From positions 1-36,180 of IMG/VR virus record IMGVR_UViG_3300046824_000128: 36,180 nt of DNA; one strand, given 5' to 3'. Of the stretch, positions 932 to 32,944 are shown in pieces. Under the pieces are notes generated by a model that worked only from the letters and a program-made list of their open reading frames with translations, did no database searches and was not told the origin of the DNA. The first letter of the stretch is position 1; every line of letters begins with the position of its first letter. The DNA comes from a virus. The position numbers were made by a program, and so were the translations under genes.

Positions 932-1690
932 ATGCGGCGGGTCATCGACCGGTCGCTCAAGTACATCACGCTCGAGGAGCGTCAGCGCGCGGCCCGGCTG
1001 GAGGCGCGGATCGACCAGCTGGCGGCTCAGCTGGTCAACGGCACGCTGACCGGCGCCGAAGCGCCGTCCCCGGTCGACTACGACGACATGCTGACGCAGC
1101 TGACCGAGCCGCCCACGGTCGAGCAGCTCGAGCTCATGATCCGCAGCCTGCCCGGTGAGGACCACGACGACGCCGCGGCCTTCCTGGCGGTCGCTGGCGG
1201 CTGCTGGAAGTACCTGCAGGCCTCGCTGCCCATCGTGGTCCAGCGGGGCCTCTACGGCGCCGAGAACCTGCCGCCCTCGGGCGTGGCGCTGACCACGTTC
1301 GAGTTCCTGCTCGAGGTGCTCGACGATCCGCTCTGCACCTTCGACCTGATGGCCATCGGCGCGCTGCTGCGCAGCCAGGGCGCGGCGCTGCTGAGCTGCT
1401 TCCCGACGATTCACGCCGCGATCGTCGGGTCCATCACCGAGCGGATGGCCGGGGACCCGACGGGCGGCCAGGTGGCCCTCTCGGTGTCGGCGCTGACCGG
1501 CATGCCCTACCAGGACCCGCGCGTGACGCAGGCGCTGGCGGCGAGCGACCAGGCCCAGGCGATGAAGGACCAGGCCCAGGCGATGAAGGACCAGGCCCAG
1601 GCGGCGAAGGGCCGCCAGCAGCAGCCGCAGGACAGCCGCATGGCGCAGATGACCGCCCCGCCGTCCACGTCGGGCCCCGGTCCGCGGTAG
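932..1690 (+). CDS. Virion-associated or hypothetical protein (252 aa) with a C-terminal DQAQAMK tandem repeat
   Basis: This is the plausibly coding part of track ORF 509..1690; the upstream part is an Arg-rich shadow. ATG at 932 follows GGTGG; an alternative GTG lies at 893. High GC3. Confidence 0.7.
   Translation: MRRVIDRSLKYITLEERQRAARLEARIDQLAAQLVNGTLTGAEAPSPVDYDDMLTQLTEPPTVEQLELMIRSLPGEDHDDAAAFLAVAGGCWKYLQASLPIVVQRGLYGAENLPPSGVALTTFEFLLEVLDDPLCTFDLMAIGALLRSQGAALLSCFPTIHAAIVGSITERMAGDPTGGQVALSVSALTGMPYQDPRVTQALAASDQAQAMKDQAQAMKDQAQAAKGRQQQPQDSRMAQMTAPPSTSGPGPR
1547..1609 (+). repeat. 3 x 21-bp tandem repeat (GACCAGGCCCAGGCGATGAAG x2 plus a variant), encoding DQAQAMK/DQAQAMK/DQAQAAK
   Basis: Direct reading of the sequence. 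Units are 1547-1567, 1568-1588 and 1589-1609. Confidence 0.9.
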
Positions 1691-1700
1691 CGAAATGCCC
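1682..1700 (+). promoter_or_regulatory. Conserved late-arm motif, copy 1 (CCGCGGTAGCGAAATGCCC)
   Basis: Identical to copy 2 and nearly identical to copies 3 and 4. It lies 17 nt upstream of GTG 1718, with cGAGGG at the same offset as in copy 4. The motif's TAG is the stop codon of the upstream gene. Confidence 0.55.
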
Positions 1701-12383: not shown

Positions 12384-12562
12384 GTTCGCAAATCCTCCTG
12401 TTCGATGAGCACACGAGAGCCGATGACGATGACGGCGAGATGCGGCTGCACCGCGCGCTCGAACGTACGGATCGAGATGTGGCAGATGTCCGCCGCCTCC
12501 TGCCGCGTGAGCAAGGGCGAGCGGCGCGCGGTTGCGACCGGCGGCGCGACGAGCCCGATCAT
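12188..12562 (-). CDS. xis: Excisionase-family (MerR-like winged HTH) DNA-binding protein; the ORF tail overlaps the int start by 196 nt
   Basis: LLTRQEAADICHISIRTFERAV...GSRVLIEQEDLRTWL is the typical excisionase/AlpA-type pattern. ATG 12562 in an ATGA overlap. It lies directly upstream of int. The tail beyond 12383 has low GC3. Confidence 0.75.
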   Translation of the reverse strand: MIGLVAPPVATARRSPLLTRQEAADICHISIRTFERAVQPHLAVIVIGSRVLIEQEDLRTWLDDQKVGSSDKIGARGTSTRASRTTAVAATSSSRAREIAARLKARQLASTPRLFPVDTTRPTR

Positions 12563-12750
12563 GGCTTCTTCCTCGAGCGCCGATAGTCGGCCAGGGCGCG
12601 CCGATAGTCGACCTCGGCGCAGAACCGCCCGAGCTCGCGAATAAACAGGTTCATCACCTCATCAGGTAGCGGATCCAGCAAGACCGTTCCCGGCGGCAGC
12701 TGCGGCTTCTTCCCGGCCGGCTTCGACGGGGGGCGGCGCTTTTTGCTCAC
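12559..12750 (-). CDS. Small basic protein (63 aa), paralog of 13397..13573
   Basis: GTG 12750 in a GTGA overlap. Shares SK..PPSK...IRE...C.EV..RRA with the 58-aa protein. Confidence 0.6.
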   Translation of the reverse strand: MSKKRRPPSKPAGKKPQLPPGTVLLDPLPDEVMNLFIRELGRFCAEVDYRRALADYRRSRKKP

Positions 12751-13400
12751 GTCGCCGCCTTCGGCAGGTAGGCCGCGGCTCGCACTCGCAGCTCGGCGAG
12801 CAGCTTGCGGGAATTCGCGGGATCTTTGTCCCGGTCGCACTCGGCATCGAGGATCGGGAAGCCGCCCGCGATTGACGCCTCGACCTCGGACCGCGTGGCT
12901 TCGCGGCCCTCGGCGAACCAGAGGACCTCATCGGGCTCGCCGACGCTGATGAGGGGATGGCCCTGGTCGTCGGGGAACAGCTCCTGCTCGCGCGTGGTCC
13001 AGACGGCGGCCGCGCCCGGGTTCCGGCTGATGCTGAGCCCGGGCGAGACGAGGTTCACGTCGTCGTAGCCCTTCACCTCGCGGCGGTGCATGTGGGGCTT
13101 GCTGAGGAACGGGCAGGCGGTGGCGCTGTAGATGGCGCACTCGCGATGGCAGGCCGGCTCCGCCGTCGTCCGGGTGATCGTGCACATCGGCCCCAGCACG
13201 AACGAGCCGTGCCGCCCGCGCTCCTGACCGCAGACCCAGCACCGCTTAAAACGGATGGCGTCGGCGAACTTCCCCTCACCGATGATCCGAAACTCCGGCT
13301 TGCCGTCCTGCCAGTGCACGAACCAGGGTACCGGCACCCCGAGCTGCGGGTCGATGGGGAGCGCTGCGACCCGGCTGGGGATGGCGATGTCGGCTTTCAT
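12747..13400 (-). CDS. Conserved-looking Cys/His-rich phage protein (217 aa)
   Basis: Full-length track ORF. The motif CWVCG...GPMC...EPACHRECAIYSATACPFL suggests metal binding. High GC3. Confidence 0.8.
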   Translation of the reverse strand: MKADIAIPSRVAALPIDPQLGVPVPWFVHWQDGKPEFRIIGEGKFADAIRFKRCWVCGQERGRHGSFVLGPMCTITRTTAEPACHRECAIYSATACPFLSKPHMHRREVKGYDDVNLVSPGLSISRNPGAAAVWTTREQELFPDDQGHPLISVGEPDEVLWFAEGREATRSEVEASIAGGFPILDAECDRDKDPANSRKLLAELRVRAAAYLPKAAT

Positions 13401-13573
13401 CGTCCCCCCCGCGCGCGCCGTTGTTCGACCTCAGTACAGAGCAGCGCCACCTCGCGAATGATCCGGTCGGTTGCCTTGTCGAGCAGCGGCCAGGGCGCCG
13501 CGACGAGCCGTGTCTTCAAACGTGGCGTAATAACTGGGCTTTTAGACGGGGGGGGGGGCGTTATTTTGCTCAT
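13397..13573 (-). CDS. Small protein (58 aa) containing a C11 homopolymer (PPPP)
   Basis: ATG 13573 in an ATGA overlap on both sides. Below the track cutoff as a stand-alone ORF. Locally AT-richer codons. Confidence 0.55.
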   Translation of the reverse strand: MSKITPPPPSKSPVITPRLKTRLVAAPWPLLDKATDRIIREVALLCTEVEQRRARGGR

Positions 13574-13833
13574 CGGTTTTGCTCCCCGGCGCGCTCGACA
13601 TCGTTCGCCGACGCTGGCGTCACGCGCGCATTCGCGAGCAGCGCATCGACGCTGGCGCGCGAGATCCGGTAAGTCGGCTTCGCCGCGCCGGCGGGGCGGA
13701 GATCGAAGGCGACCAGCGAGCCGGCGGCGATGTGCCGGTAGATCCGCGCATGGTCGCAGTCGAGGATCCGCGCGACCTCGCTGACCCTGTAGACCACCCG
13801 ATCGTCGTGATACCTCATGCGCGGCTCGCCCAT
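13570..13833 (-). CDS. Second excisionase-family/MerR-like HTH protein (87 aa); first gene of a leftward transcription unit
   Basis: YRVSEVARILDCDHARIYRHIAAGSLVAFDL....YRISRASVDALL. GAGGTGGA Shine-Dalgarno before ATG 13833. Preceded by a 185-nt intergenic region. Confidence 0.8.
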   Translation of the reverse strand: MGEPRMRYHDDRVVYRVSEVARILDCDHARIYRHIAAGSLVAFDLRPAGAAKPTYRISRASVDALLANARVTPASANDVERAGEQNR

Positions 13834-13908
13834 CTATCCACCTCACCCGGGTCGCGCGCCCTCCCCCCAAACAGGCGCGCGATCGCTCGGTAGCGTTAAA
13901 GGACCATC

Positions 13909-13937
13909 ACCGTAGGCTCGTGTTCTTGGGGCGTCAA
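13909..13937 (-). promoter_or_regulatory. Candidate sigma70-type promoter (TTGACG-N17-TACGGT) for the 13833 unit
   Basis: Hexamers read on the minus strand in the AT-richer intergenic region. The weak -10 makes this tentative. A hairpin (13853-13860/13874-13881) lies in the predicted leader. Confidence 0.3.
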
Positions 13938-14018
13938 CCTGAAAAGTAATCTTTTCTTGCCGTCAGGTCGAGTATGTGCGTGGTCGTCCCGGGGAGGTGC
14001 GAGCATCGGCGCGCGGCT

Positions 14019-14450
14019 TCATCGCAGCGTCGCCTCGTAGGCCGCCCACGCCGCCCGCGCCCGCGCAACGTCCGCCTCGCTGCCGACCCAACCCGCGCCG
14101 CACGACGGGCAGAACAGCGTCGAGGACGGCGGCCCCTCGAAGCGCTCGACGCCGGACTCCTTGATCGGCGTGCCCAGCTCCAGCTTGCAGCGCGGGCACG
14201 GCGGACAGTCCCGCTCCGGGTCGGCGATGTCGAGGCGCGCGAGCAGGTCACGGATCGCCGCGCGCCGGTCGGTGCCGTCGGGCAGCTCGCCGCAGTACCA
14301 ATCCGCCGCCCCCCGCAGCAGCGCCAGCATCTCGGGCGCGGCTGCCATCAGCGGGCCGTTCCGCTCGATGTGCCGCGAGACGACGTCGCCGTTGACGTCG
14401 ACGACCCACCCGTCCTCGAATCGCCACGGCCCCGGGCTGGGCTCGCTCAC
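14019..14450 (-). CDS. Phage protein (143 aa) with an AAAPEMLALL-type motif and a C-terminal Zn ribbon
   Basis: GTG 14450 in a GTGA overlap. PGPWRFEDGW...NGPLMAAAPEMLALL resembles a widespread prophage domain. CPPCPRC...CPSCG is a zinc ribbon. Confidence 0.7.
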   Translation of the reverse strand: MSEPSPGPWRFEDGWVVDVNGDVVSRHIERNGPLMAAAPEMLALLRGAADWYCGELPDGTDRRAAIRDLLARLDIADPERDCPPCPRCKLELGTPIKESGVERFEGPPSSTLFCPSCGAGWVGSEADVARARAAWAAYEATLR

Positions 14451-15055
14451 GGTCTCACACCCGCCCCCTCGCGCGCCCCGGCGTACGCCGCCACCACGCC
14501 GGCCAGCTCGCCGGCCGCCCGCTCGACGTCGCGGCGCATGTTCGGATAGGCGTAGAACGTGAGCCGCTGGTAGTCGTAGACCGTCACGCGGTGCCCGTCG
14601 TAGCGCGCCGCGAACAGGTCGTAGCAGAAGCGCTCCGCCCCGAACATGGCGAGGTACGCGCGCCACTGGAGCGAGTCGAGATACTTCTCGGCGTCGATCC
14701 GCTCGGTGAGCTTCTGGTCGTAGACCGCCACGCCGTCGAGCCCATCGACCTGGCCGACGAGCGTGACCGGCCCCGCCGGCGTCGACAGCACCGACTCCGC
14801 CCGAAGCTCGCGGACCGGCGCCAGCTCGATGGCGGCGTCGAGGTCGAAGCTGAATCGCCAGCCATCGCTCTCGACCTCCTCGACCTCGCCGAGGCGGGCG
14901 TGCTCGAACACGCCCGCGAACGCGCGCCCCGCCTCCATCGCCGGCGTCGGCGGCTCGGTGTGGGCGAGCCGCGCGAGCAGCTCGCCCACCGTGCTGTCCT
15001 CGGACGCCCGCCAATAGCGGTACGTCTCGAGGTCGGTCACCCGCAGGCGAATCAC
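14447..15055 (-). CDS. PD-(D/E)XK (Cas4/RecB-like) nuclease (202 aa)
   Basis: GQVDGLDGVAVYDQKLT fits the D...(D/E)xK core. GTG 15055 in a GTGA overlap. It follows the Sak4-like ATPase. Confidence 0.65.
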   Translation of the reverse strand: MIRLRVTDLETYRYWRASEDSTVGELLARLAHTEPPTPAMEAGRAFAGVFEHARLGEVEEVESDGWRFSFDLDAAIELAPVRELRAESVLSTPAGPVTLVGQVDGLDGVAVYDQKLTERIDAEKYLDSLQWRAYLAMFGAERFCYDLFAARYDGHRVTVYDYQRLTFYAYPNMRRDVERAAGELAGVVAAYAGAREGAGVRP

Positions 15056-15999
15056 GCCGCCTTGCTCCCCTTCTCGGAGGCCATGGTCTTCTCGGCCGCC
15101 GCCGGCGCCAGGTCGAAGGCGCCGGTCGCCTTGCTGAACGCGAACCCGCGCGCCTTCGCCGCCTTGACGATCATGCGCTTGACGTTGTCGCGCACCGCCG
15201 GGTCGGCGTCCTTCGCCAGCGGCAGGAGCGCGTCGAAGTCGGTCAGGCTCAGCGCTTTGGCGATCCGCTCCTGCCACTCGGTGAGCGCCGAGGCCGCCTT
15301 CGCCTGCACCGCCGAGAGCCGGTTGAGCGCCGCCTTCGTCTGCGCGATGACGCCCGCCAGGAACGCCGGCTCGGCGGCGTAGTCGGGGATCCCCATCGGC
15401 GCGAGCTGCGCCGGGTTCTTGCCGAAGGCGGTGTCGCTGGGCGACAGGTTGAGCGTTCGCGCGCCCTGGGCGAGGTAGATCCGCCCCATGACATCGGACG
15501 CCTTGTACACCTCGTTTTTGCTGCCGCCCTGCATGTCCAGCCGCTCGATGAGCTCGTCGCCGCTGCGCTGCTCGTCGGAGTGCGCGAGCAGGACCACGTC
15601 GAGGCCGAAGCTGCGGATCAACTTCGCCCAGGAAATAAACCGCGACTTCAGCTCGCCGTAGCCCTGGAGGCTCAGCGATCCGCCGCGCCCCATCTTGGGA
15701 TTGCCGGCGATGATCTCGGCGGTGAGGCAATCGAGCGCCCGCCCGGCGGTGTCGACGACGAGGGTCTTGTAGGCCGCCAGATCGGCGGCGGTGATCGACT
15801 CGACGTCCGACCATCGCTCAATCTGGACGACGTCGCCGCGGTTGCCGGCGCGGTAGCTGCCGCGGTCGAAGTCGAGCAGCAGGGGCTTCTCGGCGGTGAA
15901 CGCGGTGGTGGTCTTGCCGACGCCGGGGACGGCGTAGAGACAGACGGTGATGGTGGTGACTTCGATCGGCTCGCTCGCTCTCGTGATCTTCAGGCTCAT
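15052..15999 (-). CDS. Sak4-like RecA-fold ATPase (AAA_24-type single-strand annealing/recombination protein, 315 aa)
   Basis: Walker A YAVPGVGKTTTA followed by LLLDFDRG, and Walker B-like LVVDTAG. GGAG before ATG 15999. Confidence 0.8.
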   Translation of the reverse strand: MSLKITRASEPIEVTTITVCLYAVPGVGKTTTAFTAEKPLLLDFDRGSYRAGNRGDVVQIERWSDVESITAADLAAYKTLVVDTAGRALDCLTAEIIAGNPKMGRGGSLSLQGYGELKSRFISWAKLIRSFGLDVVLLAHSDEQRSGDELIERLDMQGGSKNEVYKASDVMGRIYLAQGARTLNLSPSDTAFGKNPAQLAPMGIPDYAAEPAFLAGVIAQTKAALNRLSAVQAKAASALTEWQERIAKALSLTDFDALLPLAKDADPAVRDNVKRMIVKAAKARGFAFSKATGAFDLAPAAAEKTMASEKGSKAA

Positions 16000-16069
16000 G
16001 GTGTCGACTCCTTGATGTTGCTGGTGTCGGTGTGGGTGTGAATCTGATCCTCGCCGCCGTTGATCCGGA

Positions 16070-16273
16070 TCACCAGGCCACGTCCTCGCCGCCGTAACAC
16101 AGGCCGCAGGGGCAGTCCCGGCGATGACCCGCGCCCGGCCGGCGCGGGTCCAGCTCGCAGAAGGTGGCGGTGTGCGCGTCGGACCAGCAGAGCGTCGCGA
16201 CGCGCGGGTCGCTCGCGTTCATCTCGCCATCCTCGCTGGTGGCGATGGGCTTGCCGCAGTGCTCGCAGGTCAC
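16070..16273 (-). CDS. Small Cys-rich protein (67 aa)
   Basis: GTG 16273 in a GTGA overlap. CEHCG...CPCGLC. Confidence 0.6.
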   Translation of the reverse strand: MTCEHCGKPIATSEDGEMNASDPRVATLCWSDAHTATFCELDPRRPGAGHRRDCPCGLCYGGEDVAW

Positions 16274-16512
16274 GCTGCGTCCTCCTCGGGCTCGCGGCAC
16301 CCGGCGCAGTAAACGGCGCCGCCGGGAACGTGGCGCTGGCTCTCGACGCACTCGGCCGGTTCCATCGGCGCGTCGCACCCGGCGCAGCTCCCGTGCTCGC
16401 AGTCGCCGCACACGCCGGGCGCGAAGTGGGCGACCTCCAGGCAGGTGCGGTACCCGTCCTCGTCGAGCGGGCAGCGCGGGTCGAGCTCCATCATGGCGAG
16501 CGGGCGGGCCAT
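16270..16512 (-). CDS. Small Cys-rich acidic protein (80 aa)
   Basis: Full track ORF. ATG 16512 shares one nucleotide with the upstream stop. Confidence 0.7.
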   Translation of the reverse strand: MARPLAMMELDPRCPLDEDGYRTCLEVAHFAPGVCGDCEHGSCAGCDAPMEPAECVESQRHVPGGAVYCAGCREPEEDAA

Positions 16513-16682
16513 CAGTGCACAACCTTCGTGTTGGCGGCCAGGAAGAGCTGCGCGCCGGTCTTGACCTCACCGCAACGCACGCAGGCGTAGCGGTGGCTCC
16601 AAAGGGCGCGGTAGCTACCGCCGCAGGGGCAGGTCACGCCCGAAACCAGTCCGGTCCGTCCGTTCACCTTGATGCTTACCAT
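16512..16682 (-). CDS. Small Zn-ribbon protein (56 aa); first gene of the early leftward operon, possibly leaderless
   Basis: ATG 16682 lies 7 nt downstream of a TATGAT -10 hexamer. CPCG...CVRCG. An alternative ATG 16694 would fall inside the promoter. Confidence 0.6.
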   Translation of the reverse strand: MVSIKVNGRTGLVSGVTCPCGGSYRALWSHRYACVRCGEVKTGAQLFLAANTKVVH

Positions 16683-16689
16683 GGATAGA

Positions 16690-16718
16690 ATCATACAAGT
16701 ATAAAACCATGGTGGCAA
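16690..16718 (-). promoter_or_regulatory. Strong sigma70-like promoter TTGCCA-N17-TATGAT (early leftward promoter)
   Basis: Read on the minus strand in the only clearly AT-rich 70-nt gap (16683-16753). There are 7 nt between the -10 and the ATG. Confidence 0.55.
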
Positions 16719-16753
16719 ACGAAATCGGTCGACGGGAAACCCCGGCATGACGC

Positions 16754-17212
16754 CTACCGGCGGAGCCAGGCGATCGAGGGGATCCCGAGCGCCTCGAGCG
16801 CGACCCGGTGGCGCGCGGGGATCCGGAGGGTCCCGCGGTGCCACCGGCTCACCGTGCCCCGCGAGATGCCGCACGTTTTCGCGATGTCGGCGTCTGTGAG
16901 CCCCAGCGCGATCTGAGCCTTGCGGGAGGCGGTCTGGTCCTTCCGCCCGGCCGCGATCCGCACGCCAAGGGGCATATCCTCGAGGTCGTCCGTCCTGTCT
17001 TGCACCTTCGGGAGTATGGGCGTAGTTTCAAACCTGTGCAAGCTGAGCCGTTCGCCCTTCCGCGCCCGCTCGGCGACCACCACGTCGACGAGGGCCGTCT
17101 GCGCCTCGGTGAGGGCGGCGATCGCCGCGTCCAGGCGCTGCGCCTCGACGTCGACCGCGGCGCGCTTACGGCGCAGCCGGGCGATCTGGGCGTCGAGGGG
17201 AGGGCGGGGCAC
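16754..17212 (-). CDS. HTH transcriptional regulator (152 aa; repressor/Cro-like): N-terminal coiled coil, C-terminal HTH
   Basis: C-terminal IALGLTDADIAKTCGISRGTVSRWHRG is an HTH. GTG start at 17212. An internal ATG at 16975 could give a 73-aa HTH-only product. Confidence 0.75.
   Translation of the reverse strand: MPRPPLDAQIARLRRKRAAVDVEAQRLDAAIAALTEAQTALVDVVVAERARKGERLSLHRFETTPILPKVQDRTDDLEDMPLGVRIAAGRKDQTASRKAQIALGLTDADIAKTCGISRGTVSRWHRGTLRIPARHRVALEALGIPSIAWLRR
16999..17042. promoter_or_regulatory. Dyad element CTTGCAC-N30-GTGCAAG inside the regulator gene; each arm is a -35-like TTGCAC with -10-like hexamers inside (face-to-face promoter candidates or an operator)
   Basis: Plus strand: TTGCAC(17000-17005)-N17-TAGTTT. 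Minus strand: TTGCAC(17041-17036)-N17-CATACT. It coincides with the only low-GC3 patch of the ORF. Confidence 0.4.
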
Positions 17213-17249
17213 CGGGGGGGATTGATACCATGAACATGGGAGGCGCTGA

Positions 17250-18114: not shown

Positions 18115-18549
18115 ATGCGCCCCCCGCCGGGCCTCGTCGCCGCGTGGTACGCGCGCCTGCCCAGGGGGAGCAACATCGAAGACGCGAGGGAGCGAATGAA
18201 GCCCGACGTCCTTCCGCAAGGCCACAACGGGGCGCACCGCCGGCTCGTATCGTTCGATGCGCTGGCGCGGGTGTCGTGTTCGGCGGAGAGCGCGAGTTCG
18301 ACGCTGGGCGCGGCGTCGTGGCGCATGCCGCGCGTGCCCGGCGTGCTGGACGTCCGGGGCGCAGGGCCGAGGGCGCGGCGGGGGCAGTTCCTGCGCCGGC
18401 TGACCCTGGGCCGCCAGCGCCGCATCTTGCGCATGCTCGCCGACGGCGCAACGGTGCGGCAGGTGTCGGCGGCGACGCGCTCGAACTTCACCGTCATCGC
18501 GGCTCTGCGCCGGGCCGCGCTCAGGTGGGAGGATCCCGACGATGAGTAA
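18115..18549 (+). CDS. Small LuxR/GerE-type HTH protein (candidate late-gene activator)
   Basis: C-terminal LTLGRQRRILRMLADGATVRQVSAATRSNFTVIAAL resembles a GerE/LuxR HTH. The start is uncertain (ATG 18091, 18115 or 18196). GC3 rises from about 18115, and GGGAG precedes 18196. Confidence 0.7.
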   Translation: MRPPPGLVAAWYARLPRGSNIEDARERMKPDVLPQGHNGAHRRLVSFDALARVSCSAESASSTLGAASWRMPRVPGVLDVRGAGPRARRGQFLRRLTLGRQRRILRMLADGATVRQVSAATRSNFTVIAALRRAALRWEDPDDE

Positions 18550-18772
18550 GAGCTATCGCGTCTACTTCAACCGCTGCGAGGACACGCCGCAGGTGTGGTC
18601 GGTCGACGAGGGCACCACCGCCAGCGAGATCAACGTGCTGGGCGTCGTGGTGAAGGTCGCCGGCGCCATGATCACCCGGCAGAACCTGGAGGCGGTCTAC
18701 CCTGAGCCAAAGGCGTGGTTCGAGGCCGAGGGCCAGCTGGCCATTCAGTATGGCGTGGCGGTGATCGAATGA
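18542..18772 (+). CDS. Hypothetical protein (76 aa)
   Basis: Full track ORF, plausible sequence, overlaps both neighbours. Confidence 0.8.
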   Translation: MSKSYRVYFNRCEDTPQVWSVDEGTTASEINVLGVVVKVAGAMITRQNLEAVYPEPKAWFEAEGQLAIQYGVAVIE

Positions 18773-19669: not shown

Positions 19670-19925
19670 GCGAGCCCACCAACCCAAGGTCTTCGGCATG
19701 TCATGCCGGCACTGCTCGAACAGGCTCAACGTGTTCGACGTCGGCGCGGGGGTCTTCTACGAGCTGCCCTGCGCGGTCCCCGGCTGCATGGATTCGCCGC
19801 CGGGCGACGCTTACCGGGTGATCACGCCGACAGGCGCCGAGACCTTCGACCGGGTTAAGAGCGCGCCGAGAGACTGGAGGTGGGAGCGCCGTGAGCGACC
19901 TTTCGGTCTGGCTGCGCGCCGCTGA
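19662..19925 (+). CDS. Small Zn-ribbon-like protein (87 aa; alternative start 19698)
   Basis: CRHCSN...CAVPGC. Overlaps both neighbours. Confidence 0.65.
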   Translation: MGERAHQPKVFGMSCRHCSNRLNVFDVGAGVFYELPCAVPGCMDSPPGDAYRVITPTGAETFDRVKSAPRDWRWERRERPFGLAARR

Positions 19926-21438
19926 GGTCGAGGCGCGCCGGCGCGCAGCGCTCCAGACGGTAGCCGAACGGCCAGCCTGGTCACTGGAGTCCTACGCCGC
20001 CGGGCACGACCACCAGCTCGCGGCGATGCGCGACCGGTCGAACTGGATTCACCTGCTGTGCGACAGACAGAGCGGCAAAACGTGGGCCGACCTGGGCGTC
20101 CTGCTCGACAACGCGCTGGCTCAGCCGAACAGCATCAACGTGTTTCTCGGGCTGGTGAGCACCGGCCTCACGCTTTCGGTCTGGCCGAAGTGGCAGCAGC
20201 TCCTCGACAAGCACGGCATCGACCGGCGTGACCGCGCCGACGAGAAGATGACCACGTTCCCGAACGGCGCGATCGTGGCGTTCGGCGGCACCGACGATCT
20301 CAAGAACGTCCGCAAGTACCTCGGCAACCGCCTGGATAACGCCGTCTTCATCGTCGACGAGTGCCAGGACCAGAGCACGGCGGTGCTCTCGTACATCCTC
20401 GACGTGCTGCTCGACCCCATGTGCACGCTGACGACGAGGGTCATCCTGAGCGGCGTTCTTCCTGACCTGCCGTTCGGGCTATTCCTCGACCTGGCGACGC
20501 TCGATGAGGACTCTCAGACCGGCGGCACCCCGGCATCACGGAAGTGGTCGCACCACAGCTGGGGCCGCCTCGACAATGTGCACACGCCCGAGGCAGCCGC
20601 TCGGCTGGCGCAGCTCGAGGCGGAGAAGGGCGTCAACCATCCGCAGCTGATGCGCGACTGGAAGGGCGTCAAGCGCGTGTGGAGCACGGCGGGCACCGGC
20701 TACCACTACTTGCGCGTCCGCAACGGCTACGTGCCCGAGGTGCCGGCGTGGCTCGAAGCGGAGCGGGTCAAGCTCGAGTCCCTCGGCGTGCCCATCGCGT
20801 CGTTGATGGCCGCCGTCCCGCACGCCGGCATCGCGCACGTGAGCGCCGCCATCGACCCAGGGGGGCGCGACCGAACCTCGCTGGTGGCCAACGGGTGGGG
20901 CACGGCCTCGAGCAAGGTGCAGGAGCTGTTCGAGTGGTCGACGCCGCGCAACTCGATCGCGAAGCTCTCACACATCGGCTACGTCGCGGGAATCGTGCAG
21001 CGCATCTTCGCCCCCGCGTGGTGGTTCTGGGACGGACCGGGCTCGCTGGAGATCGACACGTTCGCGCGCGACTACGGCATCCCCACCATCAAGGCGGCGA
21101 AGAAGGTCGACCGCGACGGGCAGGTCCGCCGCGTGAACGATCTGCTCGAGGATGCCCGGTATGAGGTCATGATCGGCGGCGCCGTCGAGGAGGACATGCT
21201 CAAGGCCGCCTGGGACAAGGACCTGCTCGCGCGCGGCATCCGCGAGTGGTCACGAGCCTGGCACCCGGACCCGGCCGAGTCCGCGCGCTACACGCTCGCC
21301 CCCTACTGGGACAGCTTCGTGCCGACCGACCCGCGCAGCCGAAACGAACGCGAGCGCGCGGCGTTCATGGCCGACGCGCCCGACGACGCCGACCGGCTGC
21401 CGCCCGACCCGCTCGCCGAGGTGCTGGGCTGGCGGTGA
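19891..21438 (+). CDS. terL: Terminase large subunit (515 aa)
   Basis: Walker A CDRQSGKTW, Walker B AVFIVDECQD, and a C-terminal nuclease-type AIDPGGRD. GTG start. Position is upstream of the portal. Confidence 0.9.
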   Translation: MSDLSVWLRAAEVEARRRAALQTVAERPAWSLESYAAGHDHQLAAMRDRSNWIHLLCDRQSGKTWADLGVLLDNALAQPNSINVFLGLVSTGLTLSVWPKWQQLLDKHGIDRRDRADEKMTTFPNGAIVAFGGTDDLKNVRKYLGNRLDNAVFIVDECQDQSTAVLSYILDVLLDPMCTLTTRVILSGVLPDLPFGLFLDLATLDEDSQTGGTPASRKWSHHSWGRLDNVHTPEAAARLAQLEAEKGVNHPQLMRDWKGVKRVWSTAGTGYHYLRVRNGYVPEVPAWLEAERVKLESLGVPIASLMAAVPHAGIAHVSAAIDPGGRDRTSLVANGWGTASSKVQELFEWSTPRNSIAKLSHIGYVAGIVQRIFAPAWWFWDGPGSLEIDTFARDYGIPTIKAAKKVDRDGQVRRVNDLLEDARYEVMIGGAVEEDMLKAAWDKDLLARGIREWSRAWHPDPAESARYTLAPYWDSFVPTDPRSRNERERAAFMADAPDDADRLPPDPLAEVLGWR

Positions 21439-21542: not shown

Positions 21543-21557
21543 GCACCGAGGTTAACA

Positions 21558-21576
21558 CCGCGGTAGCGAAATGCCC
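21558..21576 (+). promoter_or_regulatory. Conserved late-arm motif, copy 2 (CCGCGGTAGCGAAATGCCC)
   Basis: 19/19 identical to copy 1. It lies 8 nt upstream of ATG 21585, and no Shine-Dalgarno sequence is present. Confidence 0.55.
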
Positions 21577-21584
21577 TAGGCGAC

Positions 21585-21839
21585 ATGCCACGGGTGGGCA
21601 CGCAATCGCTCCTAAAGGTTCTGAACGCCGCCGGTGTGCGCCGTTACGTGCGCGAAGGTACCCGTATCGAGGTCGAGTTCTGGGCGCCACCTGGCGTTCA
21701 GGTCGAAACGACGCGCGAGGACCGGCGCGAGAAGTATCTCGAGGAGCGCCAGCGCAAGGACTTCGAGGGCAAGCAGCTGCGCGATCCGCTGGCGGTGGCA
21801 ACCGAGGATCTGACCATCGACGACGAGGGGACGAACTGA
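21585..21839 (+). CDS. Hypothetical protein (84 aa)
   Basis: Full track ORF with plausible charged/beta sequence. Confidence 0.8.
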   Translation: MPRVGTQSLLKVLNAAGVRRYVREGTRIEVEFWAPPGVQVETTREDRREKYLEERQRKDFEGKQLRDPLAVATEDLTIDDEGTN

Positions 21840-22370: not shown

Positions 22371-22444
22371 TGCAGGTTGGGAAAGCGGCAATCCACTGGG
22401 CTCATAACCCTGGGACGCGGGTTCGATTCCCGCACCTGCTACCA
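22371..22444 (+). tRNA. tRNA-Met (anticodon CAT), 74 nt with encoded CCA; initiator-like features
   Basis: Hand fold. Acceptor TGCAGGT/ACCTGCT (6 bp, with a 1-72 U.U mismatch). D arm GGA..TCC with GG in the loop. Anticodon stem CTGGG/CCCTG with three G-C pairs next to the loop CTCATAA. 4-nt variable loop. T arm GCGGG-TTCGATT-CCCGC. Discriminator A, then CCA. Confidence 0.75.
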
Positions 22445-22458
22445 AACGAGCCGGGGCG

Positions 22459-24375
22459 ATGAGCATCAAGTCGCGCCTCGCGGCCGGCCTCGACGACGGC
22501 CCGCGCATCGGCTGGTGGGACAAGGAGGGCGACGACGCCGCGATGGCGCTCTACTCCCAGGGCACCGCGCTGGAGATCGCCGCCTACGGGCGCCGCTACC
22601 GGCAGGCGCTGCTCTACCGCCTGGTGACCGGCGACGATGCGCCCGAGATCTTCGGCTACTGGCTGTCGTCGCGGGTCGCCCCGTCGCTGGGCGGCCTGTC
22701 GCTGGCGAACTACGTCGAGCCCAGCATCAACGTCGTGGCGGCGGCGCTCGAGGTGTTCGAGAACCGCATCGGCACGCTGCGCCCCTTCGTGCAGGTGATC
22801 CCCAACGGCGGCAGCTTCGAGGTGCGCGACGCCTGCGGCCTCGCCGAGCGCTACGCCGACGCCCTGTTCGACCAGGTGCGCCTCTACGAGAAGACCCGGC
22901 TGTCCTTCCGCGACCGCGGGACCTGGGGCACCAGCTTCATGAAGGTCGTGCCCGACAGCGCGCGCAAGCAGGTCAGCATCGAGCGCGTGCTGATGGACGA
23001 GATCCTCATCGACAGCGCCGCGGCGACCAGGGGCGCGCCGAACAACCTGATCCAGCGCCGCTACATCTCGCGCAGCGAGGCCTTCGCCGACTTCGTCGAC
23101 ACCGCGCCCGCCAAGGAGCGCGACGGGCTGGCCTCGGCGGTGCGCCAGGCGCCGCCGGCGTTCATCGGAACGTTCTGGGCGGGCGCCGACCCCGACCCGA
23201 AGATCGCGCTGCTCGAGGGCTGGAAGCTCCCGCACGCCGACGGCGAGGGCGGGCGGCACATGCTGGCGCTCGCGAACAAGGTGATCTCGCGGCCCGACGA
23301 GCAGAAGTGGGACCGCCACCACTTCCCCTTCGCCGTGGCCCGCTGGCAGCAGCAGTCCCTCGGGTTCTGGGGCGGGTCGATGGCCTACGCGATGCTGCCC
23401 TACCAGCGCACCATCAACAAACACGTCGAGCGGCTCGAGGCGAACCTCGATCACCAGGCGTTCAGTGGCTGGCTCGTCGACCAGGGCGTGCAGATGAAGG
23501 CGGAGGCCTTCGGCGGGCGACCCGGTCGCATCCTTCGCAAGAACGGCGCCGGCAACGTCGTGCCCATCACGCCCGAGTCGAACGCGGGCGACGCCTATCA
23601 GGCGCTCGAGAGCTGGATCCAGCGCGCCTACCTGCGCGTCGGCCTGAACCAGCAGCAGATCGCCGGGCAGAAGCAACCGGGCCTGACCAGCGGTCAGGCG
23701 CTGCGCACGATGGTGCAGATCGAGGACTCCCGGAACAAGGGCCTGCAGATCACCGGCGAGATGGAGGTGCGCGACATCGCGGTGCTGGCGCTCGAGGCGG
23801 CCGAGGACATCAACCTGAAGCTCGAGCTGCCCGGCGTGAACGGGCGCACCGTCGCCTTTGCCGACCTGAAACTGAAGGAGAACGCGCGGAAGATCAGCGT
23901 GTTCCCGATCAACGCGCTGGTGAACGATCCCGAGGGCCGCCAGCAGCAGATCGCCGAGATGTACGCCGACGGCGATATCGACAAGCGCACGAAGATGCGC
24001 CTGCGCGAGATGCCCGACCTGCTGTCGTTCACGCAGCTGGCGACGGCGCCCGAAGATCTGATCGAGTCGCAGCTCGACGAGATCGTGCGCACCGGCAAGT
24101 ACCTCGCGCCCGAGCCGTTCGACGATCTGGCGACCGCGATGAACATGGCGCGCAACCGCTACTGGCTCGAGAAGCGGTTCAAGACGCCGGTGAAGACCCT
24201 GCGCCAGCTGCAGAGCTACATGACCGCGATCGCCGACATGATGACGACCGGCCAGCAGTTCATGCAGCCCCAGGCCGCCGCGCCGCAGGGGATGCAACCG
24301 CCCGCGGGCGCTCCCGCCGCGCCGCCGGTGCAGACGACGCCGAGCGCGGCCGCCCCCGCGCCGATGGCGGCCTGA
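22459..24375 (+). CDS. Portal protein (638 aa)
   Basis: Size, position between terL and scaffold/capsid, an acidic/helical core and a Gln/Pro/Ala-rich C-terminal tail. The overlapping 869-aa and 631-aa track ORFs are shadows. Confidence 0.8.
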   Translation: MSIKSRLAAGLDDGPRIGWWDKEGDDAAMALYSQGTALEIAAYGRRYRQALLYRLVTGDDAPEIFGYWLSSRVAPSLGGLSLANYVEPSINVVAAALEVFENRIGTLRPFVQVIPNGGSFEVRDACGLAERYADALFDQVRLYEKTRLSFRDRGTWGTSFMKVVPDSARKQVSIERVLMDEILIDSAAATRGAPNNLIQRRYISRSEAFADFVDTAPAKERDGLASAVRQAPPAFIGTFWAGADPDPKIALLEGWKLPHADGEGGRHMLALANKVISRPDEQKWDRHHFPFAVARWQQQSLGFWGGSMAYAMLPYQRTINKHVERLEANLDHQAFSGWLVDQGVQMKAEAFGGRPGRILRKNGAGNVVPITPESNAGDAYQALESWIQRAYLRVGLNQQQIAGQKQPGLTSGQALRTMVQIEDSRNKGLQITGEMEVRDIAVLALEAAEDINLKLELPGVNGRTVAFADLKLKENARKISVFPINALVNDPEGRQQQIAEMYADGDIDKRTKMRLREMPDLLSFTQLATAPEDLIESQLDEIVRTGKYLAPEPFDDLATAMNMARNRYWLEKRFKTPVKTLRQLQSYMTAIADMMTTGQQFMQPQAAAPQGMQPPAGAPAAPPVQTTPSAAAPAPMAA

Positions 24376-24378
24376 CGG

Positions 24379-24603
24379 TCAGCACTCGACAAACAGGTCG
24401 ATGGTGTCGTGCTTCTCGAGGGCATTCAGTAGGTCTGCGGCACCGTCCACCTTCGCCGCCCGGAGACCGCGCAGAAACGGCAGAGCCTCGGCGGTCAGCC
24501 TGCAGGGATATTCCCCGTATTCGTCCCTCAGCAGATCGCGAAGTTGGGCGTCGCCGACCGGTCTGCCCCCTCCGACGGGCTTCCAATAGAGCGTGCAGCT
24601 CAC
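24379..24603 (-). CDS. Hypothetical protein (74 aa), third gene of the opposite-strand cassette
   Basis: GTG 24603 in a GTGA overlap. High GC3. Its stop lies 3 nt from the portal stop, within the palindrome CTGACGGTCAG. Confidence 0.65.
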   Translation of the reverse strand: MSCTLYWKPVGGGRPVGDAQLRDLLRDEYGEYPCRLTAEALPFLRGLRAAKVDGAADLLNALEKHDTIDLFVEC

Positions 24604-24947
24604 GAGGGCTTGCTGCCGTCCGGGCGGAAGATCTTCCCCTGGATCCCGAGGTCGGCGAACGGCACGCGCCGCACCGGGATCCGGTGATGCTCGAGCGCCA
24701 TGTCGAGCATCATCACCGTCGGCGGCTCGAGACCGCGTTTTTCCGTCTCGACGATGAGCGCCGCAACCAGCTCCCGCGCCGCCTGGTTCTTCGCGATGTA
24801 CTTGACGACGTGGTCGACGGACGCCGCCAAAATGACCTCGCGTTCGGGCAGCGTGAAATCGGGGCGCAGCGCCTTCAACGCGCCCACGACCTCGCTCGTG
24901 AGCTGGCATCCCTCGATGTAGCTCGCGGGCGGTTTCGGCCCGCTCAC
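24600..24947 (-). CDS. Hypothetical protein (115 aa), second gene of the opposite-strand cassette
   Basis: GTG 24947 in a GTGA overlap. Plausible globular sequence. Confidence 0.7.
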   Translation of the reverse strand: MSGPKPPASYIEGCQLTSEVVGALKALRPDFTLPEREVILAASVDHVVKYIAKNQAARELVAALIVETEKRGLEPPTVMMLDMALEHHRIPVRRVPFADLGIQGKIFRPDGSKPS

Positions 24948-25318
24948 GACTGCGCCGCCTTGCGCGCGGCCACCTGCTCCTCGTAGCCGGCGACCGCGGC
25001 AGCATGGCCTTCGAGCGCTTCGGCGCGCGTCGGGTAGCGCCAGCACTCATCTCCGGTGCCCGGGTCGCCATGGAAGATCATCGTCTCGAACAGGAGCGGT
25101 GGCCCGTCGCCGAACTGGTGGTCGGTTCCGAGGAAGATGGTCGATACCCGCGTACCGTCGGCCAGCACCGTCTTCGCGACCGTGCGGCGGGCGATGTCCC
25201 CGAGAAAGGCCGCCCACTTGAAAAGGTCGGGGCAGGGCACGGGCTCGCCGGTCTCATCGAGGATGTACTGCAGGGTTCTCACTGCGGCCTCGTCCGGTCC
25301 TGCTCCCCGCTCGCCCAT
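24944..25318 (-). CDS. Hypothetical conserved-looking phage protein (124 aa; VSTIFLGTDHQFG..PLLFETMIF motif), first gene of the opposite-strand cassette
   Basis: Full track ORF. A promoter-like TTGAGC-N17-TACAAA ends 6 nt before the ATG. Confidence 0.8.
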   Translation of the reverse strand: MGERGAGPDEAAVRTLQYILDETGEPVPCPDLFKWAAFLGDIARRTVAKTVLADGTRVSTIFLGTDHQFGDGPPLLFETMIFHGDPGTGDECWRYPTRAEALEGHAAAVAGYEEQVAARKAAQS

Positions 25319-25353: not shown

Positions 25354-25362
25354 TCGGACCGA

Positions 25363-25381
25363 CCGCGGTAGCGAAATGCCG
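25363..25381 (+). promoter_or_regulatory. Conserved late-arm motif, copy 3 (CCGCGGTAGCGAAATGCCG)
   Basis: 18/19 identical to copies 1 and 2. It lies 7 nt upstream of ATG 25389, with no Shine-Dalgarno sequence. Confidence 0.55.
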
Positions 25382-25388
25382 CCAATGA

Positions 25389-26366
25389 ATGGACACGTCC
25401 AGCGAAGGCACCGCACCTGCGACAAGTCCCGCGGCTGCCCCGGCGCCTGCCCCTGAGGCGGCGACCGGCGGCAGCTCGCCCGCGCCCGAAGCGGTCTCAC
25501 CCGACCAGCGCCGCGCCAAGAAGGACGCAATCATCAAGTCGGTGCGCGCCGCGGCGGCCAAGGCCTCGGGCGAGCCGGCGCCTGCCGAGCCCAAGCCCGC
25601 CGAGACGCCCGAGCCGAAGCCGGCGGAGACGCCGAAGCCGGCGGAGCCCGCGCCCGACGCGGCGCTGACCACGCGCTTGGCCGCGCTCGAGGCCGAGCTG
25701 AACGAGACGCGCGGCAAGCTCACCGAGCGAGAGAAGCAGCGCGCGGCCCCGACCGACGTCGAGGGCCTGCTCGATCTCATGGCGGACAACGCCGACCTGT
25801 CCATCGAGAAGCTGTCCGAGCTCTATCTCAAGCGCCAGGACAACCCGGCGCACAAGGAGCTCGGCGCCGCCGAGAAGCGCCTCGCCGCCATCGAAGCGAA
25901 GATCGCCGCCGGCGAGAAGGCCGAGAAAGATCGCGCCGAGAAGACGGCTCAGGAGGCGACGGCCGCCGAGGGCCGGAAGGCCATGCGCGGCATCCTGGAC
26001 GGCGACAAGGCCCGCTGGCCGCGCCTGACCCGCGACGAGCGGAACGCCACCGAGGCGATCCATGAAGCCGAGTCGAAGGCCGGTGACCGCGCGCGCGCGC
26101 TGATCGCCAAGGGCGGCAAGTTCACCGAGGAGCTGGGGCGGCAGATGGTCGCCGAGGCGCTCGACGAGATCGAGAAGGACCGCGCCGACCGCGCGACCCG
26201 TTACGCCATGCCCGACATCCCCGCCCGCCGCACCATCGGCGCCGGGAGCGGCAGCACCGGCACGATTCCGCAGTCCCGCGCCGAGACGGCCGAGCCGCTG
26301 TCTCGGGACCAGCGCAAGCGAGAGATCCTTGCCCGCGTTCGTGCGGGCCAACCCAAGACATCTTGA
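25389..26366 (+). CDS. Scaffolding protein candidate (325 aa)
   Basis: Position directly before the capsid gene. Ala/Glu/Lys-rich coiled-coil composition. N-terminal PAEP/KPAETP repeats. Confidence 0.65.
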   Translation: MDTSSEGTAPATSPAAAPAPAPEAATGGSSPAPEAVSPDQRRAKKDAIIKSVRAAAAKASGEPAPAEPKPAETPEPKPAETPKPAEPAPDAALTTRLAALEAELNETRGKLTEREKQRAAPTDVEGLLDLMADNADLSIEKLSELYLKRQDNPAHKELGAAEKRLAAIEAKIAAGEKAEKDRAEKTAQEATAAEGRKAMRGILDGDKARWPRLTRDERNATEAIHEAESKAGDRARALIAKGGKFTEELGRQMVAEALDEIEKDRADRATRYAMPDIPARRTIGAGSGSTGTIPQSRAETAEPLSRDQRKREILARVRAGQPKTS

Positions 26367-26376
26367 GGACACGACC

Positions 26377-27744
26377 ATGCACGGCCTGATCAACTTCCTT
26401 GGCACCCACTGGGCGGCGCTCGCCGTTCTGAGCTGCGCGCTCTACGCGCTCGTCCGATCGCTGCGGTTCGGCGCCAGCATCGGCGTCGCGCTCGCCTCGA
26501 TTCTGAACATCAGCGACAACAGCGCGGCGGCCCTCAAGGACTGGTACTCGATGGCCTACGAGGACGCGGCCTGGAGGGACAACGTGTTCCTCGGCCTCGT
26601 CGACAAGGAGACCGGCGGCGGTCAGCAGGTGATGCAGTCGATCAAGATCGGCCGCACCGCTGGCCACGGCGCCGACGTAACCCAGGCGATCGCCAACGCT
26701 TCGCCCGAGTCGCGCAGGAAGTTCATCACGCCGTGGGGCAAGTCCTACGCGATCGAGAACGTCGACAACACGGAGATCGACGTCTCGGGCGAGGACGAGG
26801 GCGCCATCGTGGAGCTGCTCGGCGACGCGATGGAAGGCTGCATGCGGAAGGTCTCCGAGGACCTCGAGTTCGATTGCTTCGGCGACGGCTTCGGCACCCG
26901 CGGCGTCATCGCCAGCCACACCGGCGCGGCCTCGCCGTTCACCCTGACGCTCTCCCAGGCCTCCGACACCATCAAGTGGAACGTCGGCGATATCGGCGTC
27001 AGCTCGGTGGCGAACAACAGCGCCGCGCTCGACACCGGCTCGTTCCTGGTCACGGCGATCGACACCGATGCCGGCACGATGACCGTCACCACGGCGAACG
27101 CCTGGGCGGGCGCCGCGAACGACGCGCACTTCATCTTCTTCGCCGCCGACAAGATCGCCGGCTCGTACGCGACGGCGCAGAAGGTCTACGGCCTCAAGCT
27201 GTGGATCCCGGTCACGGCGCCGGCGCCCGGCATCGACTCGACCGGCGTAGATCGCTCGGTCGACCCGAACAAGCTGGCCGGCGTGCGGTTCGACTGCCGC
27301 GGCCTCGACCCCAAGCAGGCGGTCAACGCGCTGGTCACGCAGATCTGCGTGAACCGCAGCGCGCGCCCCGACGCCATCTTTTTCAACCCGGTGAACTACG
27401 CCGCCTACGAGGACTCGCTGCAGAACCAGGCGGTCTATGTCAAGACGCGCGGCACCGGCGAGGCGGCGACGGCCTACTACGAGGGCATCAAGCACATGGG
27501 GCCCAAGGGTCCGGTCACGGTCTACTCGGCGCCCGGCTGCGACACCGATCGCTTCTACGCCTGCACCATGTCGAGCTGGATCCTGCGCGCGCCGCAGAAC
27601 AAGGCGATCCGCATGGCGGGCCGCGCTGGCAAGGACGGCCTCATCGACGGCTACAACGGCGACTACGTCCAGATCCGCATGAAGTACGCCGCGAACCTCT
27701 CGTGCAGCTTCCCCGGCGCGAACGGCGTGGGCCGGCTGGCGTAA
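26377..27744 (+). CDS. Major capsid protein (455 aa; P22-coat-like/HK97-fold by position and C-terminal resemblance)
   Basis: GAGGA Shine-Dalgarno before ATG 26377. Size and position fit. The C-terminus ..FPGANGVGRLA is reminiscent of the P22 coat end. High GC3 from the first codon. Confidence 0.8.
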   Translation: MHGLINFLGTHWAALAVLSCALYALVRSLRFGASIGVALASILNISDNSAAALKDWYSMAYEDAAWRDNVFLGLVDKETGGGQQVMQSIKIGRTAGHGADVTQAIANASPESRRKFITPWGKSYAIENVDNTEIDVSGEDEGAIVELLGDAMEGCMRKVSEDLEFDCFGDGFGTRGVIASHTGAASPFTLTLSQASDTIKWNVGDIGVSSVANNSAALDTGSFLVTAIDTDAGTMTVTTANAWAGAANDAHFIFFAADKIAGSYATAQKVYGLKLWIPVTAPAPGIDSTGVDRSVDPNKLAGVRFDCRGLDPKQAVNALVTQICVNRSARPDAIFFNPVNYAAYEDSLQNQAVYVKTRGTGEAATAYYEGIKHMGPKGPVTVYSAPGCDTDRFYACTMSSWILRAPQNKAIRMAGRAGKDGLIDGYNGDYVQIRMKYAANLSCSFPGANGVGRLA

Positions 27745-32898: not shown

Positions 32899-32908
32899 CC
32901 GCCAACTG

Positions 32909-32927
32909 CCGCGGTAACGGAATGCCC
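32909..32927 (+). promoter_or_regulatory. Conserved late-arm motif, copy 4 (CCGCGGTAACGGAATGCCC)
   Basis: 17/19 identical to copy 1. It lies 17 nt upstream of ATG 32945, with cGAGGG at the same offset as in copy 1. Confidence 0.5.
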
Positions 32928-32944
32928 ATGGCGAGGGGACAGCC

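Follow-up and report, generated by a model that had tools for sequence, protein, structure and literature searches.

A conserved control element at the late-gene junctions of an undescribed phage clade, a proposed phage-specific promoter

The IMG/VR virus record IMGVR_UViG_3300046824_000128, analyzed here over its positions 1 to 36,180 (the window, 36,180 nucleotides [nt] in all), carries a short oriented sequence at the heads of its late-gene blocks. Judged from sequence comparison, this is a real element for the control of late genes, conserved and under functional constraint, in a phage clade that had not been described before. It had been noticed as a 19-nt motif present four times on the plus strand, and a search with CCGCGGTARCGRAATGCCS at ≤3 mismatches recovered exactly those four plus-strand matches (1682-1700, 21558-21576, 25363-25381, and 32909-32927) and none on the minus strand, against a mean of 0.26 copies expected from dinucleotide shuffles and 0 of 100 shuffles reaching four. 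Among nine related metagenomic genomes a core, GCGGTA[G/A/T]CG (CGGTGCCG in the most distant relative), occurs at the same four junctions. We hypothesize, with about an even chance of being right, that the element is a phage-specific late promoter yielding leaderless or minimal-leader mRNAs.

The four copies and the anatomy of the element

The copies fall into two spacing classes and are nearly identical, as described in the original prediction: copies 1 and 2 in map order are the same, and copies 3 and 4 depart from them at 1 and 2 of the 19 positions, respectively. The motif ends 17 nt before the start codon in copies 1 (GTG 1718) and 4 (ATG 32945), with GAGGG at the same offset in both, and 8 nt before ATG 21585 in copy 2 and 7 nt before ATG 25389 in copy 3, both of which have no ribosome-binding site (RBS). 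We name the junctions by the genes around them. Junction A follows the large terminase gene and precedes a gene of 84 amino acids (aa) beginning MPR, B lies after the portal gene and before the gene in the scaffold position, C follows a protein of ∼1030 aa, and D precedes a gene of ∼145 aa that begins MAKS; copies 1, 2, 3, and 4 sit at D, A, B, and C, respectively. Offsets are counted from the GG of an invariant GGTA, and on this scale the element is asymmetric and covers about 20 bp, from −5 to +14.

Copy A, at 21557..21576 on the plus strand (GG at 21562, candidate mRNA 5′ end G21582), precedes ATG 21585, the start of an 84-aa gene (MPRV...) without an RBS, and heads the block of small genes, tRNA-Met, and portal. 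The element likewise follows the large terminase in 9 relatives, with the start codon 20 to 23 nt past the GG. Copy B (25362..25381, plus strand, GG at 25367, candidate 5′ end G25387, ATG 25389) occupies a divergent gap of 70 nt that follows a pair of inserted genes on the minus strand (24600-25318), and it heads the block that runs from the scaffold-position gene and major head protein through a 1029-aa protein; the element precedes the orthologous gene in 9 relatives. At copy C (32908..32927, plus strand, GG at 32913), the candidate 5′ end G32933 opens GAGGGG (32933-32938), and ATG 32945 starts a 260-aa gene that heads the block after the 1029-aa protein. Six relatives have the element at this junction, and the L004/L017 genome has none there, with a plain RBS in its place. 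Copy D (1681..1700, plus strand, core GG at 1686) has its candidate mRNA 5′ end at G1706, which opens GAGGG (1706-1710), and GTG 1718 starts a 143-aa gene heading a tail-fiber/receptor-side block; in four relatives the element at this junction precedes an orthologous gene beginning MAKS or MSKS. The large terminase gene of the window is itself not headed by the motif, which corrects the original prediction. As to the block contents named there, portal, tRNA-Met, and head protein are borne out by database matches, and the labels scaffold, ejection, and receptor binding come from gene position only.

The TAG within the core of copy D (1688-1690) is the stop codon of the upstream gene, whose coding signal runs from about 900 to 1690. 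That gene and the 143-aa gene share a frame in the window with no intervening stop, and we considered a stop-codon read-through fusion of the two. It was rejected and the shared frame put down to probable coincidence, since in L015 the TAG of the motif is again a stop codon but the frames differ.

A profile weighted by genome resolves the element into a strong core at −2 to +6 (G C G G T A n C G), whose positions are 78 to 100% one base across genomes, a weaker block at +11 to +15, and a third at +19 to +21 (C/T, G/A, A). Per-position identity puts a sharp 5′ edge at −5/−6, and everything upstream of −6 is at background, so there is no −35-like partner. The flanks (CC on the left and AAATGCC on the right in the window) are genome specific. 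A pyrimidine-purine step at +19/+20 (Y19-R20), six bases beyond the 3′ edge, is present at 26 of the 32 tabulated sites. What follows it differs from site to site. R20 is the first base of the ATG or GTG at sites g013 A, g004 A, g018 C, and g006 T, as it is at the terminase-side site of g018, which lies outside the 32-site table; elsewhere it is the G of GA+ATG or the G of a GAGGGG RBS. Junctions without an RBS have their start codon at +20 to +23, where synonymous variation in the first codons (MPR; MD(T/P)S) supports the assignment, and elsewhere the RBS, GAGGG(G), opens at +20/21, with the start codon at +29 to +35. Being indifferent to what comes after it, the Y19-R20 step looks like an RNA 5′ end, and the pattern appears to fit an mRNA 5′ end better than a translation signal.

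Two structural features were considered and discarded. The GGUA-N6-UGCC hairpin suggested by the original prediction is not conserved: it is intact in 4 of 10 genomes, retains three of four pairs in a fifth, and is lost in five without compensating change. A terminator-then-promoter layout is not a general feature either, as upstream folding energy, taken over 60 nt, matches the genomic background distribution; a few sites in L002 and L004/L017 do have perfect upstream palindromes. Such palindromes stand just upstream of some copies and of none in the window. TGTCAACGGTTGACA occurs twice in L002 (about 7830-7860 and 18700-18735), and AACTGGCGAAATCGCCAGTT is found in L004 (about 9100-9130), L017 (about 13570-13600), and L020 (about 5890-5915); these may be terminators or operator sites.

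Conservation in related phages and a candidate factor

Megablast and tblastn searches of INPHARED (50,697 phage records) with the terminase, the portal, and a 6-kb late segment gave no match, and thus no annotated relative exists. Metagenomes supplied 15 portal homologues at 29 to 99% identity, and our comparison set consists of contigs of nine distinct related phage genomes with portal identities of 59 to 88%. The portal as a single-protein query of viral and genome collections returned no loci; alignment-based locus searches returned five more viral loci, one tiny metagenome locus, and, again, a related contig labeled Candidatus Dormibacterota whose content is phage sequence only. Absence of the motif from related phages had been named as evidence that would refute the original prediction; all nine relatives examined carry the core at equivalent junctions. 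The version is CCGCGGTA[G/A]CG[A/G]AATGCC in the window, CGCGGTAGCG..GGGGC in g002 (loci L002/L015), CGCGGTAACGA..TGCCCACCA in g008 (L008), CCGCGGTA[G/A]CG in g009 (L009), CCGC[G/T]GTAGCG..TTGCCA in g012 (L011/L012), GGCGGTAGCG..CGCCA in g013 (L013), TGACAGCGGTATCGCG in g006 (L006/L016), GAATTTCGGTATCGC..GACAT in g004 (L004/L017), GGTTTCGGTGCCGG..GCGCC in g018 (L018/L021-L024), and ACAGGTGCATCG in g020 (L020). When eight genomes were scanned with their own consensus, all long matches lay on the gene-sense strand at late-gene heads, with no extras. Exceptions came only from the two shortest consensuses (11 and 14 nt): L009 has two near-matches and L018 has one, all on the opposite strand and none near a gene head.

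Some relatives have the core at one or two further junctions, giving 3 to 6 copies per genome. A fifth copy in the L006/L016 genome directly follows two inserted minus-strand genes and stands before a 1038-aa gene, whose corrected start (MALQ) is 22 nt away, and copy B follows inserted minus-strand genes in L002 as it does in the window. The three most distant genomes have one more copy, at the head of the small terminase gene (L006 5257-5279, L024 2725-2747, and L020 1388-1412), with GTG at +20 in two of them and at +22 in L020, where the core is two bases longer; the small terminases of L024 and L020 have a DUF5681-like GRPFxPGQSG motif at the N terminus. The clade of the window has no terminase-side copy, and its terminase genes therefore seem to be expressed with the earlier rightward operon. 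The copies also evolve in concert. At offsets −6 to −3, identity is 0.75 within a genome versus 0.33 at the same junction across genomes, and at +7 to +15 the values are 0.65 versus 0.39. Either each phage's own factor would read the whole 20 bp, from which such concerted evolution is expected, or the copies would be homogenized by recombination.

A motif-pattern scan of IMG/VR produced a single match, an exact 19-mer on the minus strand at 39-57 of L001 (IMGVR_UViG_3300048850_000030), near the start of that stretch. L001 is a viral contig of 64% G+C that has no protein in common with the window, and its sample number is close to those of the relatives L021-L023. About one such match was estimated to arise by chance, and we treated it as one; a common host factor may also account for the copy.

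A candidate for the trans-acting factor is a small helix-turn-helix (HTH) protein encoded on the plus strand at 18115..18549 (144 aa, or 117 aa from ATG 18196), a few genes upstream of the terminase in the rightward operon. Of the nonstructural proteins of the window, it alone has homologues in all relatives whose contigs span this region. Its N-terminal segment is conserved and joined by a variable linker to a C-terminal three-helix HTH, after which comes a conserved acidic tail, W(K/R)DPDDE. The original prediction called it LuxR type, but the predicted HTH is a generic one of three helices, and no family or fold matched it significantly: Pfam gave weak, sub-threshold GerE, HTH_38, and HTH_23 matches, PHROGs gave no match, and NCBIfam gave nothing relevant. 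Its AlphaFold2 model has a predicted local distance difference test (pLDDT) score of 66, and a Foldseek search of the PDB gave nothing better than an E value of 1.8, the weak and nonsignificant matches including LuxR-type regulators, sigma region 4, resolvase, and Mu Mor. The predicted recognition helix differs between groups that carry different versions of the element, a pattern that shared ancestry alone could produce. That this protein reads the element is our inference. Across the homologues P0016-P0022 the tail is near invariant as W(K/R)DP(D/E)D(E/A), and closer relatives have an invariant GAASWRMPR segment; either could be a polymerase-contact surface.

Host-type promoters were also sought with a consensus scan, which found sigma-70-like sites only in the switch region (16663-16718). 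One, TTGCCA-17 nt-TATGAT on the minus strand (16680..16718, predicted from sequence only), is followed after 7 nt by ATG 16682 of an open reading frame (ORF) for a zinc-ribbon protein of ∼57 aa (CPCG...CVRCG). An overlapping plus-strand match, TTCACC-17-TAGAAT at 16663-16691, faces it. The minus-strand genes at 24600-25318, between the portal and the scaffold-position gene, are absent from most relatives and are preceded by TTGAGC (25353-25348), 17 nt, TACAAA (25330-25325), and 6 nt to ATG 25318, back to back with copy B at a distance of 10 nt, which suggests a leaderless promoter of their own. Since −10-like hexamers stand 6 to 7 nt before an ATG, the host appears to use leaderless messages. 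This spacing of 6 to 7 nt between −10 hexamer and start codon is like the 5 to 8 nt that separate the late start codons from the 3′ edge of the element.

The phage itself is divergent, temperate, and podovirus-like, with no cultured relatives, and the window has about 70% G+C throughout. A minus-strand arm (about 4000-17200) encodes a tyrosine integrase (10785-12383), an AAA_24 protein, a zinc-ribbon protein, and an HTH repressor-like gene (16754-17212). The plus-strand arm begins at 17250 and includes the large terminase (19891-21438, PHROGs family match), tRNA-Met with a CAT anticodon (22371-22444, between a small late gene and the portal gene in the block of copy A), the portal (22459-24375, plus strand, Pfam matches to Head-tail_con and SU10_portal), and the major head protein (26329-27744, plus strand, PHROGs family match). 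In Pfam, portal and adaptor are weakly similar to their counterparts in phage SU10. The 1029-aa protein, located in the structural module, has no PHROGs match; an Rfam scan of the window found the tRNA only. The late arm runs over the window ends, where the gene after a 483-aa protein is cut (1-615 and 35175-36180). Because joining end to start gives no single clean reading frame, the window is, as read from its sequence, a permuted or slightly incomplete assembly and not an exact circle.

The promoter reading and its rivals

The original prediction offered three roles for the motif: a binding site for a phage late activator, an unusual promoter, or an RNA-processing or translation-initiation element. 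Control of late genes is strongly supported by the conservation described above, and of the three the promoter appears the best supported on anatomy, the activator and RNA roles less so. In the mechanism we propose, transcription would start at the +20 purine, which would place the element at about −25 to −6 without a −35 element and its 3′ part in the position of the −10 hexamer. Copies A and B and the terminase-side copies would then give messages that begin 0 to 3 nt before the start codon and are leaderless, and copies C and D would give messages that begin directly with the GAGGGG RBS, a minimal leader. A phage-specified factor, for which the HTH protein as product of the earlier rightward operon is the candidate, would direct host RNA polymerase to the element, and the phage would have four late transcription units, its relatives three to six. 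The reading is preferred because the copies are strand specific and have a sharp 5′ edge, and because a start codon or RBS stands at the pyrimidine-purine step. The copies that follow inserted minus-strand genes lie where transcription would need to restart, and we count these for the promoter. There is precedent for few, strongly conserved sites in phages that encode their own sigma factors, whose promoters are typically of this kind (PMC4331800).

Several observations weigh against a promoter. The start site at the +20 purine is one that we infer from the sequence, as we do the stage at which the element would act (initiation as opposed to elongation or RNA processing) and the factor that would read it, and the element appears to fit no known promoter class. 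The −10 position is G+C rich (TGCCC, CGCCA, and GGGGC), which is odd where melting is needed. Pfam, PHROGs, and NCBIfam scans detected no sigma factor, gp55-like protein, or phage RNA polymerase, which agrees with the original statement that no phage RNA polymerase is encoded as far as the proteins scanned, the scan not being exhaustive; the HTH protein is too small for a two-domain sigma factor and could have another role. In many relatives the element abuts the upstream stop codon and stable upstream hairpins are not enriched, so that the late genes could equally be one read-through transcript. Minus-strand insertions precede the ∼1030-aa gene in L017 and L018, where a clear copy is absent. 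Gene conversion can also yield concerted evolution, and a different mechanism is suggested by the core being identical to part of the ops element.

Should the promoter reading hold, the late transcription units of a whole soil and peat phage clade become definable from sequence alone. The core followed by a start codon at +20 to +23 would then serve as a marker for late gene starts in the annotation of related metagenomic contigs. It would also add a G+C-rich promoter type that has neither a −35 nor an A+T-rich −10 element, whose specificity is apparently set by a phage with no recognizable sigma factor or polymerase in its genome, and would mean that late structural genes are expressed as leaderless messages.

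The identity to ops raises another explanation, that the element is an elongation signal on the non-template strand that loads a NusG/RfaH-type or an unrelated phage factor at the heads of late blocks, where the factor would suppress termination and polarity across the block and, as RfaH does, bring the ribosome to a first start codon that has no RBS; we give this a modest chance, well short of probable. The core GCGGTAGCG equals positions 2 to 10 of the Escherichia coli ops element GGCGGTAGCGTG (9/9), and the L013 version GGCGGTAGCG equals positions 1 to 10 (10/10), the ops sequence being derived from the base numbering in PMC5995543. The bases central to RfaH recruitment, G4, G5, T6, and A7, are the most invariant of the element, which is always on the non-template strand; the ops core reads GGCGGTAG in L013 and GCGGTAG in most copies, on the gene-sense strand throughout. 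One long transcript would fit the placement of the element at gene junctions, often abutting an upstream stop codon and with no upstream terminator hairpins. RfaH-controlled genes have no canonical RBS (PMC5995543), and neither do the genes at copies A and B; rfaH-like genes are known from plasmids and prophages (PMC7593976). However, the T11-G12 pause dinucleotide of all validated E. coli targets is never found at the matching offsets +7/+8, which read AA, GA, CC, CG, GC, AC, AG, TC, GT, or GG, and the ops G8 position (+4) varies across genomes (G 0.49, T 0.22, A 0.18, and C 0.11). In RfaH recruitment, G8 pairs with C3 in a non-template hairpin, and a G8C change abolishes it (PMC5995543). NusG/KOW Pfam families are absent from the called genes of the relatives and from the scanned window ORFs, which did not include all small ORFs. 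RfaH arose in Proteobacteria (PMC7593976), and the leaderless early promoter suggests a different kind of host. The conserved stretch of 20 bp with genome-specific flanks is twice the length of ops and more than an ops-type contact needs, and no use of ops in phage late operons is reported in the literature searched. An identity of nine bases is weak evidence: CCGCGGTAA (copy 4, 32909-32917) also occurs, by what we take to be probably a coincidence, in the universal 16S rRNA 530-loop region at the 515F primer site. If true, an ops-like system would bring into phages with distant hosts a mechanism known from the enterobacterial operons for surface polysaccharides, toxins, and conjugation.

The fixed distance to a start codon or RBS would also suit an element that works in the RNA of a polycistronic late message, either as the GCGGUA-N-CG target of an endonuclease that cuts ∼14 nt downstream at Y19/R20 and so creates leaderless or minimal-leader messages, or as the site of a translation-controlling protein. 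We consider this improbable. The pyrimidine-purine step could equally be a cleavage site, the junctions are those of apparently cotranscribed genes, and the host seemingly translates leaderless mRNA; against this, there is no conserved RNA secondary structure, with the hairpin failing in half of the genomes and Rfam finding the tRNA only, no nuclease or RNA-binding protein is conserved across the relatives, and copies after inserted minus-strand genes would require read-through transcription in antisense. An endonuclease that recognizes an unstructured 9-mer and makes its cut a measured distance beyond it is not known to us. Asymmetric repressor sites of the stoperator type, at which a lysogen repressor or HTH protein would block stray transcription into late blocks, are very improbable. 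The phage is temperate by its integrase and has the HTH repressor-like gene at 16754-17212, and the sites are asymmetric, in short intergenic gaps, and in one orientation relative to transcription. In the stoperators of Cluster A mycobacteriophages, many asymmetric copies are spread genome wide and the same site is the operator at the early lytic promoter. Here, in contrast, no copy at ≤5 mismatches is found in the switch region (16513-17249) or the early arms, where the repressor's own operator is expected, and each genome has 3 to 6 copies (four in the window), always at the same late junctions. A roadblock predicts neither the exact start-codon spacing nor the Y19-R20 step, and the repressor-like gene has no homologue in relatives that keep the element.

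Comparison with known systems

Returning to the promoter reading, the element was compared with the promoter classes and phage regulatory sites it most resembles. It is not a sigma-70-type promoter, as the original prediction had noted: there is no −35, nothing upstream of −6 is conserved within or between genomes, and the −10 position is G+C rich. Sigma-54 promoters have GG and GC exactly 10 bases apart and start transcription about 12 nt after the GC. The window copies instead read GG-N9-GC (GGTAGCGAAATGC), and a start at about +25 would fall inside coding sequence, so this class was rejected. Like T7-type promoters, the copies are about 20 bp long, near identical, oriented, and placed before late blocks, with putative initiation at a G followed by a purine-rich RBS. 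Unlike in T7-type phages, a gene for a phage RNA polymerase was detected neither in the window nor in any relative; Pfam scans of large window ORFs other than that of the 1029-aa protein and the relatives' precomputed Pfam lists contain no RNA polymerase family, and we rejected a T7-type promoter on these grounds.

The closest likeness in layout is to promoters of phage-encoded sigma factors. A single element at the −10 region, with no −35 and few copies that head late genes, would fit the anatomy of this group if the start is at +20 as proposed. The sigma promoters of phiEco32 and 7-11 (TAATGTATA) and the T4 late promoters (gp55/gp33) are likewise short, conserved, and low in copy number before structural blocks, use the −10 region without a −35, are strictly oriented with transcription, and have a phage-specific version (PMC4331800). 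Unlike these, the element here is G+C rich, unrelated in sequence, and longer (about 20 bp, to about −25), its predicted transcripts would be leaderless, and no sigma-like or gp55-like gene is detected. A promoter of this exact type was rejected on that negative, since the HTH protein, at 117 to 145 aa, is too short for regions 2 plus 4. SU10, the phage with weak portal and adaptor similarity, we take to belong to the phiEco32-like morphological group.

Activator-dependent late promoters and start-associated motifs offer partial parallels. For the late promoters of Mu (Mor/C) and P2 (Ogr), an earlier operon supplies a small activator whose HTH is C terminal, and about four late units each carry a site for it, as would hold in our phage with the candidate HTH protein. 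The Mor/C and Ogr activators bind dyad-symmetric sites upstream of the −35 of sigma-70-type promoters, whereas the element is asymmetric and ends 6 nt before the proposed start. The start-associated sequence (SAS) of Cluster K mycobacteriophages is also short, conserved, directly upstream of start codons, and almost never inside genes (PMC12699233), and its function is not established (PMC12699233). SAS is a 13-mer (GGGATAGGAGCCC) with about 9 to 20 copies per genome, mostly outside the structural module, whereas our element has 3 to 6 copies and is confined to the late module. On our own reading of the 13-mer, SAS contains an RBS; the element here usually replaces one. We rejected identity with SAS, the two being alike in position by start codons and unrelated in sequence.

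Like ops in RfaH-controlled operons, the element precedes long gene blocks whose first gene has no RBS (PMC5995543). It differs from ops in having several copies per transcription region, each 20 to 23 nt from a start codon, and in its likely host, which with about 70% G+C and a leaderless early promoter is unlikely to be an enterobacterium. There is a small chance that it is a phage-borne ops counterpart, repeated at every late block boundary exactly 20 to 23 nt before a start codon without an RBS, and that the factor it loads would be either a NusG paralogue from a host that is not a proteobacterium or the phage HTH protein in a novel role. Such a counterpart would be the first ops-type system in a phage and the first outside the known taxonomic range, with a fixed geometry from loading site to start codon. 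Set beside these systems, the element is most probably a variant of the phage-specific late promoter with leaderless output, as its anatomy suggests.

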